A DNA stretch of 27,837 nucleotides from a virus (lineage: Duplodnaviria; Heunggongvirae; Uroviricota; Caudoviricetes): IMG/VR virus record IMGVR_UViG_2537561944_000027. The stretch is one strand, 5' to 3'. A program made the position numbers. This document shows, one piece after another, positions 6,001 to 9,000 of this stretch. Each line of letters starts with the position of its first letter. Positions within the stretch are counted from its first letter, which is position 1.

Positions 6001-9000
6001 ATTCATCACGTAAGGCTCTGGCTCTGGCTCTTGCAAGGGTAAGGTGAGGATATGTCCCAAGGCTCATTTTGGTTCTTTTCTTGCTCACGGGTACTGCATA
6101 CCTGAAATACCAATTTTTCTTGCCTCCTTTCGCCAAAGGAGCGATTCGTAGAATCAGACCATCACCGTCAAACAAGTTGATTTCTTTATCGGCTGGCTTG
6201 GTGCTTTTGATTTCAGTGTCAGTGAGCTTCTTAGCGATTTTTGCCATTTTGGGACCCTCGGTTTTTGGACCCTTCTTAGTGGGTCCCATTCAGGGTGCCA
6301 TAACTCGTAGTTCTCAGCAATTCTCACTGGACGACAATAGACGTAAAAAAGCCCGCAGAGCTTGTGCTGTGTGGGCTTAGTAGACTTCATTGAACTTCAA
6401 ACAACTAAAAAGTGGAGCTGGCGGGAGTTGAACCCGTGCCCGAGCAATGCTTAACCCATTGAATAACAATGCATTCTCTGTTTAAAAATGCCTCAAGTGC
6501 ATTTTGAGTGCATTTTCTGGTCCTCTCTTGGTCCATACAACGAGATTAAGTGGCCACTTGAAGTTCCGGCCCTGCGTCGCTATCTATTAACGGCTGACCT
6601 TGAACCATTTTTTCAACCATATCGTTTGAAGGATATGGAACCCCGAGCTCAACCGTATTAGGGTTGGAACGGTGGGTTTCAACAAACGATGTTCCGTTCC
6701 ATTTTTTTGAAAGGTAGATTATTCCTTCAAAGGCTGCAGGGTCCTGTTTCTGAGACTCTAAGATCATGTGGAAGCCACGACGTTCTATCCCGCGTAAGAA
6801 GCTGGAGAAGCACTCCCTCAGTAATTCGTCATCCAAATCCTTGAACTTGATACCCTGCGCAAGAAACTCGAAATAATTAAGAATATATAAAAGGCCATTG
6901 ATGGCATCCCTGTACTCATCGGGGACCTTCATATTCTTGTATTCTTCTTTGTCTGGGTTGCAGCGCCACTCTGATAGTTCTTGTGGTACATAACGCATGC
7001 CCCGATAGAATTTGGTGCTGTTCCGAAGCTGTTTTTGGTACTCCGGGCTTGTTCGGGTGTTAATGATCATGTTCAGCGTGTGGGACCTGCGCGTGTTAGC
7101 AGCGGACGTTATGCATTGTATCCACCATCCCATTCCAACGAGCATTCCTGTAACCATGATCGAAAGCGATGTTTGATAGGCCGGTGTGTACCTTAAAATT
7201 GCATATCCAATAAGGATAATCACATAACAAACAGTGCTGAACATAGGAAGAAATTCTGCAGTGTCTGGATAGCGTTTTTTGATGAAGCAGAAGATAGAAG
7301 ATATTGCTGCACCAGAACCAGCAATGACGATCAGCCAATCAATGATGGCGATGCTAAATGGTAGTTTTCCAGGGTAGATATAAGTAAAAAGTGCTCTGAC
7401 AATCATCATTAGAGCAAAAATTGTAGCGCTGACGTTGACTAATGTTCTCGCCATCTTATTGATTCCTATAACAAAAGACCTCCGCATGGGAGGCCTTATT
7501 GTGCTAATGGAGGTTTGTTTTAAAATTTTAGGTTGTAGTTAACCTTCACCGAAACCTACGGTCAGTGTCTTTTTCATAGTGTTCACTCCAGTTGTGGTGC
7601 TTCGCCGATACCTACGTTAAGCTCTTGAAAAGTAAAAAAACATAAAAGTTTTAGAATTTGTGGAGCACAGGATAACAGTTTGTACTGGGACTCATCAAGT
7701 ACTATCAGTGTCCTTGCACTGTCCTAGTGAAAATTTATTGCAATAAAGTAACTTACGTGAAGTCAAGAAATATATTTGCACTCCATTTCTTGCTATGATG
7801 TAAGTTATTGATTTTAATTAAATTTACAATTACCTAAATGAACTATGGAAACTATCAATAACATAGATGATAGCTCATTTCACAAAAAGCAATGGTAGAC
7901 TCATTCTTAATTTTCATCAGCCTTAAGCCTATGTACTCAGCTTGACACAACATTTATAGACGTTTTACCATCGTATTCAGCCAGGTATTTACCGTAATTG
8001 CGGAACAGCATTTCCGGCCCCTTATGCCCCATCTGCCCGGCAAGCCAGAAAAGGTTTACACCCTGGCTAATGTGTCTGGTGGCGAATGTGTGGCGCGTCT
8101 GGTACGGGTTACGGTAGCGCACACCAGCTTTTTTCAGGGTCGGCACCCATGCTTTTTTACGGATAGCGTCGGCGTTCGTCCAGGGTTCTCCCGTTTTCGG
8201 ATCGCTGAATATGAACTCACTTTTCATAAAGGTGTATTGCTTCTGCGCCTGCAGGGCTGCCAGCGCCTCACTGTTCAGCTCCACCTTACGGGTACCGGCT
8301 TTTGTCTTGGTGCCTTTAAGTACCCCTACGACACTGGCCGCCTGAACGTGGGCTGTGTTCGCGATGGTGTCGAGATCAGCCCAGCGCAGCGCGCACAGTT
8401 CTGAGCTCCGCAGACCTGTATTGAAAGCAAAGCGGAACAGGTTTTCCCATTCCCTGTACCTGCAGCTCTGGTAAATGGCAAGGGTCTCCGCTGGCGTGAA
8501 CGGGTCAACCTCGTAATCGTCGGCGCTCGGGCTACTGTCGATCACGTGGTACCGGCTGGCGCTGACGAGGGTTACCGGGTTAATGGTCAGCAGGCCATCC
8601 GTAACAGCTTCATCAATGGCGCTGCGCAGAAATGACAGGTTATTCCTGATTGTTTTCAGCTTAGTTTTTCGGCTGGCTATCCAATTTTTTAGTATCGCAG
8701 GCGTCAATTCTGTTACATGTAGTTTATGTAGTTCTGATAGTGCTGATAGACATTTTTCGTAACCGCCAATGGTTGACGGCGACAGATTACGGTTTATGCA
8801 AATTTTCAGGTATTCATCAAGATAGGACTTAATATTTTTGGTTTTCTTTACTACACCGAATAACTCCAGTTTTTTGGAATTGGGGAAATATTTCGCATAT
8901 TCAAACGTTCCGCTGGCGATCTGATTTTGTATCTCCCCTAGCAGGCGCTCAGCATATTTTATACCACGTGTATTTGCCTCAAGCCGAGATAGGGGCTCCC

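Follow-up and report, generated by a model that had tools for sequence, protein, structure and literature searches.

What does a small gene at the very edge of a prophage do, and how is it controlled? The question is raised by a 27,837-nt stretch of Caudoviricetes DNA (IMG/VR record IMGVR_UViG_2537561944_000027; hereafter the window, meaning this whole stretch), in which a gene of the DUF4760 family lies between the integrase gene (int) of a lambdoid prophage and its attachment (att) core. The window is DNA of Escherichia coli O26:H11, with 100% identity to strain RM10386 and 99.8% identity to strain 11368. The gene is almost certainly non-essential prophage cargo, carried between int and the phage attachment site (attP) of a lambdoid prophage that integrates at ssrA, and it is preceded by a conserved mini-open reading frame (mini-ORF) and an intrinsic terminator. 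Our favoured reading of its function, which we hold tentatively and at a little below even probability, is that its product is a gated effector at the membrane, serving phage exclusion or abortive infection (Abi). The features on which this account depends are the following.

5012-6289, minus strand: CP4-57-like P4-type integrase
6412-6436, minus strand: att core, a 25-nt copy of the ssrA 3' end (GTGGAGCTGGCGGGAGTTGAACCCG)
6546-7454, minus strand: DUF4760 gene, 302 amino acids (aa) plus stop, recognised from the ORF, PF15956, the RefSeq coding sequence WP_001431537.1 and 73 homologues
7455-7487, minus strand: 5' extension of a 313-aa ORF, probably untranslated
7468-7497, minus strand: intrinsic terminator, AAGGCCTCC-catgc-GGAGGTCTT followed by TTGTT, with nine pairs, five of them G-C
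7539-7577, minus strand: leader mini-ORF, MKKTLTVGFGEG-stop, 12 codons, with a Shine-Dalgarno sequence (SD) GGAG at 7589-7586
7937-9139, minus strand: lambdoid prophage integrase (Arm-DNA-bind_2 and Phage_integrase), upstream of the DUF4760 module on the same strand

The gene and its start codon

A first-pass annotation of the window had placed a 313-aa ORF at 6546-7487. The ORF is indeed present on the minus strand, but its start has to be moved 33 nt downstream: RefSeq WP_001431537.1 and all aligned homologues begin at ATG 7454 (302 aa), and the ATG at 7487, which is lacking at homologous loci, falls within the loop of the terminator hairpin (7497-7475), so that 7455-7487 is probably untranslated. 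Compared with three homologues of 78-85% amino-acid identity, nonsynonymous divergence (pN) was 0.085-0.135 and synonymous divergence (pS) 0.79-0.90 (saturated), with pN/pS ~0.1-0.15, and 35 columns are invariant in an alignment of 46 homologues. Strong purifying selection acts on the ORF, which is a real gene.

Leader mini-ORF and terminator

The gene had also been described as lone, a description that does not survive inspection of its upstream region, where the conserved mini-ORF (7577-7539) and the terminator precede it. Over 480 bp of aligned upstream sequence, the SD, the 12-codon ORF, the terminator and the gene start are conserved, in that order, between the window and a second E. coli allele (~81% identity in global alignment), which occupies the same int-att site in lambdoid prophages with different immunity regions. 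The last six codons of the two mini-ORFs (MKKTLTVGFGEG and MKMIISVGFGEG) differ synonymously only, and the terminators show compensatory changes. Across 32 sequences from Escherichia, Dryocola, Shewanella, Halomonas, Stutzerimonas, Pseudomonas, Rheinheimera and IMG/VR contigs, the order SD, mini-ORF ending G-x-G-x-G-stop, terminator and gene recurs in 29; of the three exceptions, one runs into the end of its contig, one lacks the upstream region and one carries a 1-nt indel. The mini-ORF varies in length from 9 to 17 codons (examples are MMNVGFGEG, MVFNIGVGEG, MKLETGVGAG and MRNFEIGYGEG), and the chance expectation of the pattern GGN-NNN-GGN-NNN-GGN-stop is ~0.005 per 400 nt. At a protein identity of just 27%, Acinetobacter phage TRS1 has the leader MKTTKLNYRLADGYGIG (...DGYGIG-stop), and relatives in IMG/VR carry MKKSIILMHGSGCG, ...EGIGLG, ...DGYGIS and the looser MILSIGCEE; a short DUF4760 member of ~200 aa (L114) has no such leader.

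Among ~33 distinct leader ends, entropy is 0 at the first and second positions of the three Gly codons and exceeds 1 bit at the third. Because substitutions at the Gly codons fall on the third position alone, the leader bears a coding signature, which makes it very probable that it is translated. Rfam holds no family for the leader, and literature searches on the leader peptide or on PF15956 found nothing relevant; what is new here is the deeply conserved, apparently translated mini-ORF with its terminator, along with the identification of the int-attP slot as a cargo hotspot, the DUF4760 family itself being already known. In IMG/VR the exact GFGEG-stop DNA pattern matched 31 times, 23 of them at DUF4760 loci, and the idea that the leader is a general element ahead of other genes was rejected, since the remaining 8 matches look like chance save for one orphan. 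This leader-like unit (...MVGFGEG-stop plus terminator) lies at 1770-1860 of an IMG/VR contig (L139), and the DUF4760 gene is absent downstream of it. The string TVGFGE in the leader also fits the K+ channel signature T-[VI]-G-[YF]-G-[DE], which we treated as a coincidence in a 12-residue peptide without pore architecture.

Applied to 12 leaders, RNAalifold recovered the terminator as the sole conserved structure, with two covarying pairs. In all homologous loci examined it has a folding energy of -10 to -17 kcal/mol and is followed by a T-tract and then the gene start, lying ~15 nt ahead of the gene's ribosome-binding site. Because the start follows the T-tract so shortly, without room for a promoter, all transcripts of the gene must read through the terminator. 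The locus therefore presents a short ORF with an SD and a coding pattern, and then a terminator that stands before the gene with no promoter in between; judged from its sequence, the module is laid out like an attenuator.

Just upstream of the leader SD, at 7599-7616 on the minus strand, lies a degenerate second copy of the leader 3' end, matching at 15 of 18 nt (CGTAGGTATCGGCGAAGC against CGTAGGTTTCGGTGAAGG at 7560-7543). It has no start codon, is found at another locus (L029) too, and looks like a remnant of leader duplication.

Putative promoters

Two promoters and a repeat array were annotated upstream of the leader, the promoters being called from consensus and conservation alone.

7669-7698, minus strand: putative promoter P2, with -35 TTGATG at 7698-7693, an 18-nt spacer and an extended -10 TGtTATCCT at 7677-7669
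7731-7766, minus strand: putative upstream promoter P1, with -35 TTGACT at 7766-7761
7682-7726, minus strand: four (T)AGGAC / AGTAC direct repeats spaced 11, 11 and 17 bp apart, overlapping the P2 -35; a feature of enteric loci

In an alignment of 13 enteric and Shewanella upstream regions the P2 hexamers are conserved and the spacer is variable; the same alignment conserves the P1 box as TTGACA/T with a TG-extended -10, although in the window the P1 -10 is uncertain because of a 5-bp deletion relative to the homologues. The repeat array has the look of an operator, as far as its sequence can tell. Pseudomonas loci have a single TTGACG-17-TAnnnn box.

Prophage boundary and cargo slot

Since the DUF4760 gene sits between two integrases, we made an ungapped comparison of strains with different left flanks. 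Sequences match up to 6412 and no further left: the prophage edge is at 6412, with the DUF4760 gene 110 bp from the att core. Because strain identity stops exactly at the start of the ssrA-derived core, the gene is the last gene of the lambdoid prophage, and the CP4-57-like island is ruled out as its owner. The left neighbour of the prophage is ypjA in HCP5S3_I4, another prophage in PS1Thumoskin9 and the CP4-57-like island in O26 and O111 strains; whatever the chromosomal flank, the gene accompanies the lambdoid int, and this bears out its first-pass classification as a prophage accessory gene (moron) between int and att. The same annotation was right to set it at the int-att boundary and to describe an AT-rich gap of ~450 bp to int (int ends at 7937, the gap is 449-482 bp, and the GC content of 7501-8000 is 0.34). 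A weak match to transfer-messenger RNA covers 6410-6457, and in strain 11368 an intact ssrA lies at the opposite end of the 54-kb prophage, beside the type III secretion system (T3SS) effector genes espK, espN and nleL. In the window ssrA is occupied by two elements in tandem, the island with the CP4-57-like P4-type integrase lying directly left of the lambdoid att core (5012-6436).

Among 5426 complete E. coli genomes the gene is present in 79, in all of them at ≥99% identity and always with the same int. Related integrases have other content, or nothing, in the corresponding slot.

Integrase 98% identical (strain A41): a HATPase_c_2-like gene, a DUF4325 STAS-like gene and an unknown gene (L152 1659-3481)
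Integrase 92% identical (mouse strain): two unknown genes
Integrase 84.5% identical (tcmA_3): another DUF4760 allele
Integrase 79% identical (2013C-3264): empty slot

The int-attP interval is accordingly a variable cargo slot. One of the uncharacterised cassettes beside closely related integrases is a pair of genes for 81 and 255 aa (L153 2407-3431). The alternative int-att cassettes matched no PADLOC model, and it is possible that the uncharacterised ones are further defence candidates. Temperate phages are known to carry variable defence hotspots in P2 and P4 elements (Rousset et al. 2022, PMC9122126), and the slot is like these in being a fixed position beside a conserved phage gene where unrelated small cassettes alternate between related elements; it is unlike them in being the int-attP interval of ssrA-integrating lambdoid phages and in that the alternative cassettes match no known defence system. 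Our comparison marks this interval as a cargo hotspot with further unknown cassettes.

Outside E. coli, homologues stand at the junction of host and prophage, often at the lysis end, in Pseudomonas aeruginosa (phage Riah), P. granadensis, P. tohonis and Pantoea. In phage TRS1 the 27%-identical gene, flanked by terminators, is inserted between the genes for the tail chaperone and the tape measure. DUF4760 is almost confined to phages and prophage edges, across many genera. The gene of the window thus has what is looked for in a moron: it lies within the prophage edge, relatives carry alternative cargo or none, and its putative promoter boxes are conserved. In E. coli O111:H11 88-19539 ISVsa5 has inserted at the 3' end of the DUF4760 gene and is present again in the early region, a case of module decay in one lineage.

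The same evidence bears on whether the gene serves the phage's own cycle, for instance by timing lysis, by helping DNA into or out of the cell, or by protecting the cell once induced, being expressed mainly after induction by antiterminated pL transcription running through int and the leader terminator. The gene lies directly downstream of int and in the same orientation, the prophage encodes an antitermination protein, and the Pseudomonas homologues adjoin the lysis cassette. There, however, the gene is convergent with the lysis genes, and so not co-transcribed with them; it is dispensable, since the slot beside closely related integrases holds other cargo or none, it occurs in only those 79 E. 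coli genomes, and it has putative promoter boxes of its own that are conserved. We consider such a role very unlikely.

Protein family and architecture

The C-terminal domain, which the first-pass annotation had left without a family, belongs to a known one: it matches Pfam DUF4760 (PF15956) at 58.9 bits against a curated cut-off of 25 (E 8e-16), over profile positions 8-141 of 141 and residues 117-263 in the numbering of the 313-aa ORF. RefSeq names the product a DUF4760 domain-containing protein, and the literature mention of DUF4760 that was found is a gene-table entry only. PHROGs 8946 and 21275 were matched, the function of both being uncharacterised, and PHROG 2284 is also among those of the family. 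Clustering at 50% identity resolves this small family into 535 clusters among 1.84 billion proteins; no member exceeds 345 aa, and none of the clusters contains a fusion of DUF4760 to another domain. The window protein is of the same length class and has the same layout of transmembrane (TM) helices followed by a helical domain.

An N-terminal multi-helix hydrophobic region had been noted from the start and stands: hydropathy peaks and the AlphaFold2 model (pLDDT 86 over the full length, 91 when the C-domain was modelled by itself) agree on four helices, modelled at 2-26, 35-61, 69-89 and 91-~118. In the model the fourth TM helix runs unbroken to residue 135, into an all-helical domain that ends near residue 290; the DUF4760 domain (~119-290) is followed by a disordered tail. 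Hydropathy analysis located charged stretches in a KKR loop past TM2 and an RR...R stretch past TM4, which by the positive-inside rule suggest an N-in, C-in topology with a cytoplasmic DUF4760 domain. Because polar residues are conserved within the membrane part (R20, D39, Q94, S98 and Q113, besides a GMGWWIQ motif), it is likely to be more than an anchor. A fold search of BFVD returned no match with E <0.07, and when the C-domain alone was used as query the four top matches were EP domains of the plant EDS1 family (EDS1, PAD4, SAG101), at grey-zone scores.

How the leader could control the gene

Like trpL, thrL, hisL, tnaC and ermCL, the module comprises a short SD-led ORF and then an intrinsic terminator directly before the gene; the thrL peptide itself ends GNGAG-stop. 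We judge from this arrangement that leader and terminator probably regulate the DUF4760 gene, though by a modest margin over the chance that they do not. The module is unlike trpL-type attenuators in that no alternative antiterminator pairing was detected, the stop codon lies 10-47 nt before the stem, and there is no Rfam family.

Several results weigh against a regulatory switch. An antiterminator was sought by minimum free energy, ribosome-constrained and truncated-transcript folds, by RNAalifold and by duplex z-scores, and none was found by any of these; folds with a ribosome placed on the leader stop codon still keep the terminator; and the complementarity of the SD region and of the leader 3' end to the terminator 5' arm is like that of shuffled sequences (mean z -0.4 and +0.19, n = 24). 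Since a ribosome at the leader stop would end 10-47 nt before the stem, the terminator may be a constitutive damper rather than a switch. Nor is the peptide motif universal, because the leaders of distant relatives have one or two Gly only (IGCEE-stop, SGCNE-stop). Three specific mechanisms were rejected on these grounds or others: classical attenuation, for want of an antiterminator; direct steric hindrance, in which a ribosome on the stop codon would cover the terminator, by the size of the gap; and translational bypass from the last Gly codon, fusing leader and gene, because the landing frames meet stop codons.

Arrest peptides have their conservation in the last residues next to the stop codon, and Gly is slow in both peptide release and elongation. 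The conservation of the leader is concentrated in its last 5-6 residues beside the stop, as in the arrest-peptide leaders tnaC and ermCL, and the fit to a nascent-peptide arrest leader is suggestive only. On a more far-reaching proposal, which we think improbable, the G-x-G-x-G-stop mini-ORF would be a new class of ribosome-sensing leader, through which a prophage would detect infection from the state of host translation and deploy a membrane effector accordingly. The part of this proposal concerned with mechanism, in which dwell or stall on the peptide end, altered when phage disturbs translation, would decide the passage of RNA polymerase through the terminator, seems to us equally improbable. 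A bolder variant adds that the DUF4760 domain would be a bacterial relative of the plant EP domain and a small-molecule sensor.

The mini-ORF might instead encode a trans-acting peptide of 9-17 residues, short-lived, abundant and antitoxin-like, that holds the DUF4760 protein inactive; the terminator would give a high peptide:protein ratio, and shut-off of host gene expression during infection would lead to decay of the peptide and so free the protein. Conservation of the last six peptide residues is at the level of amino acids, the search for an antiterminator that could account for a switch in cis was negative, a terminator between antitoxin and toxin is the arrangement of type III ToxIN, and the peptide class tracks the clade (VGFGEG in enterics, IGYGEG in the 332-339-aa clade and Halomonas, GVGEG/GVGAG in Pseudomonas and GYGI[GS] in Acinetobacter). 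Vertical descent, however, explains this co-variation equally well, protein antitoxins of such small size are not known, and the stability and binding site of a free cytosolic 12-mer are only presumed. We regard both the inhibitory peptide and its release by decay as doubtful.

In type III ToxIN and in lactococcal AbiD1, too, expression of a harmful Abi effector is held down by a terminator that closely precedes it. Unlike these systems, the module has as its upstream element a mini-ORF that appears to be translated, not an antitoxic RNA repeat, and the candidate effector is a membrane protein, not a nuclease. A leader acting in cis and a peptide inhibitor acting in trans (with the terminator setting the ratio) fit the data equally well, and both readings imply a product that must stay low. 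The module is a testable case of how a prophage silences a potentially toxic gene and of which signal frees it.

Function

Prophage edges and int-att slots commonly carry exclusion, Abi or conversion genes. Cargo position, phage-restricted distribution, tight control and membrane architecture, taken together, are what lead us to favour a gated effector for exclusion or Abi. Transcription would start at the module's own promoter or promoters and cross the leader (MKKTLTVGFGEG-stop) and then the terminator, so that a lysogen would make next to none of a potentially harmful membrane effector. Leader or peptide would set this block, or release it on a disturbance of translation such as that caused by a superinfecting phage, and the DUF4760 protein would then act at the inner membrane to exclude the infection or abort it.

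Lambda RexB, SieB, P22 SieA and T4 Imm are multi-TM inner-membrane proteins of exclusion or Abi, and the TM layout of DUF4760 resembles that of RexB. Like these, the window protein is a small multi-TM protein carried as accessory cargo of a temperate phage, with expected expression from the prophage. Unlike them, it adds a predicted cytoplasmic domain of 170 residues; it also shows no sequence similarity to them (PADLOC), and has no RexA-like partner gene.

The sole independent functional pointer is a machine-learning prediction for relatives. In a table of the DefensePredictor study (PMC13092281), two E. coli DUF4760 proteins bear the label "predicted novel defense gene", WP_097432356.1 (339 aa, log-odds 7.6) and WP_077873354.1 (332 aa, log-odds 6.7), where the stringent cut-off is log-odds 4 and 45% of cloned predictions were validated overall. 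Neither protein was seen among the 42 validated systems of the study's main text. A link to PD-Lambda-6 from the study's HHblits search (14% coverage, weak) was not reproduced with HMMER.

Other results count against a defence role. The proteins in that table, which comes without sequences, are relatives, and WP_001431537.1 itself is not among the entries it lists in the part accessible. Searches of PADLOC-DB 2.0 at E≤0.1 and, for the window protein and six relatives, at E≤10 returned noise only (DrmMII at 14.7 bits, PbeC at 10.9 bits); NCBIfam and the PHROGs with known function gave no usable match; a PDB sequence search found no relative of solved structure; and the fold search with the full-length model yielded only generic TM and helical bundles, in the grey zone.

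These negatives accord with a membrane protein for lysogenic conversion or host fitness, with no part in defence, acting for example in ion or envelope homeostasis or in stress tolerance. Its leader would tune expression to physiology, for example to Gly-tRNA charging or the general translation rate. Polar residues conserved in the TM domain, Gly at three of the final five leader codons (a trait shared with amino-acid attenuators), the host-directed T3SS effectors espK, espN and nleL in the same prophage and the lack of homology to defence families all suit this account. It has to contend, however, with Gly codon usage that is not fixed (distant leaders have 1-2 Gly), the antiterminator that was not found, the near confinement of the gene to phages and prophage edges across genera, and the high machine-learning defence score of relatives. 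We think a host-fitness protein unlikely, and tuning of its leader to physiology no more probable.

Were the gated exclusion or Abi effector the true reading, DUF4760 would add a family of single-gene membrane effectors, spread by temperate phages whose hosts include Escherichia, Pseudomonas, Acinetobacter and Shewanella, and extending to the prophages of pathogenic O26 Shiga toxin-producing E. coli. If the gene is a plain membrane moron behind a constitutive damper, the finding is an ordinary one.

Other features of the window

The remaining content of the window falls to either side of the module.

Left end of the window: IS3 insertion sequence fragment
Left of att: low-GC island (GC 0.29-0.37), which contains the CP4-57-like P4-type integrase
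Right of int: lambdoid early region with an S24 repressor, Rha/Ash, replication genes, DUF968, three tRNAs and a nanS-p-like esterase

A partial Rfam match to IsrM at 6345-6419 (51 bits, far under the gathering score) spans the native terminator downstream of ssrA. In the low-GC island, 1019-4487 on the plus strand holds a gene pair encoding HEF_HK plus HATPase_c (572 aa) and Response_reg_2 (588 aa). Such two-component-like pairs have been linked to restriction-modification systems and paraMORC ATPases (Bellieny-Rabelo et al., PMC8011034); PADLOC is without a model for the pair. At 24783-27428 the tRNA trio is followed by a SASA/DUF1737 (nanS-p-like) esterase, at the site that stx occupies in Stx phages, the toxin gene being absent here. 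The first tRNA of the trio is called Met (CAT) by ARAGORN and Ile in RefSeq.

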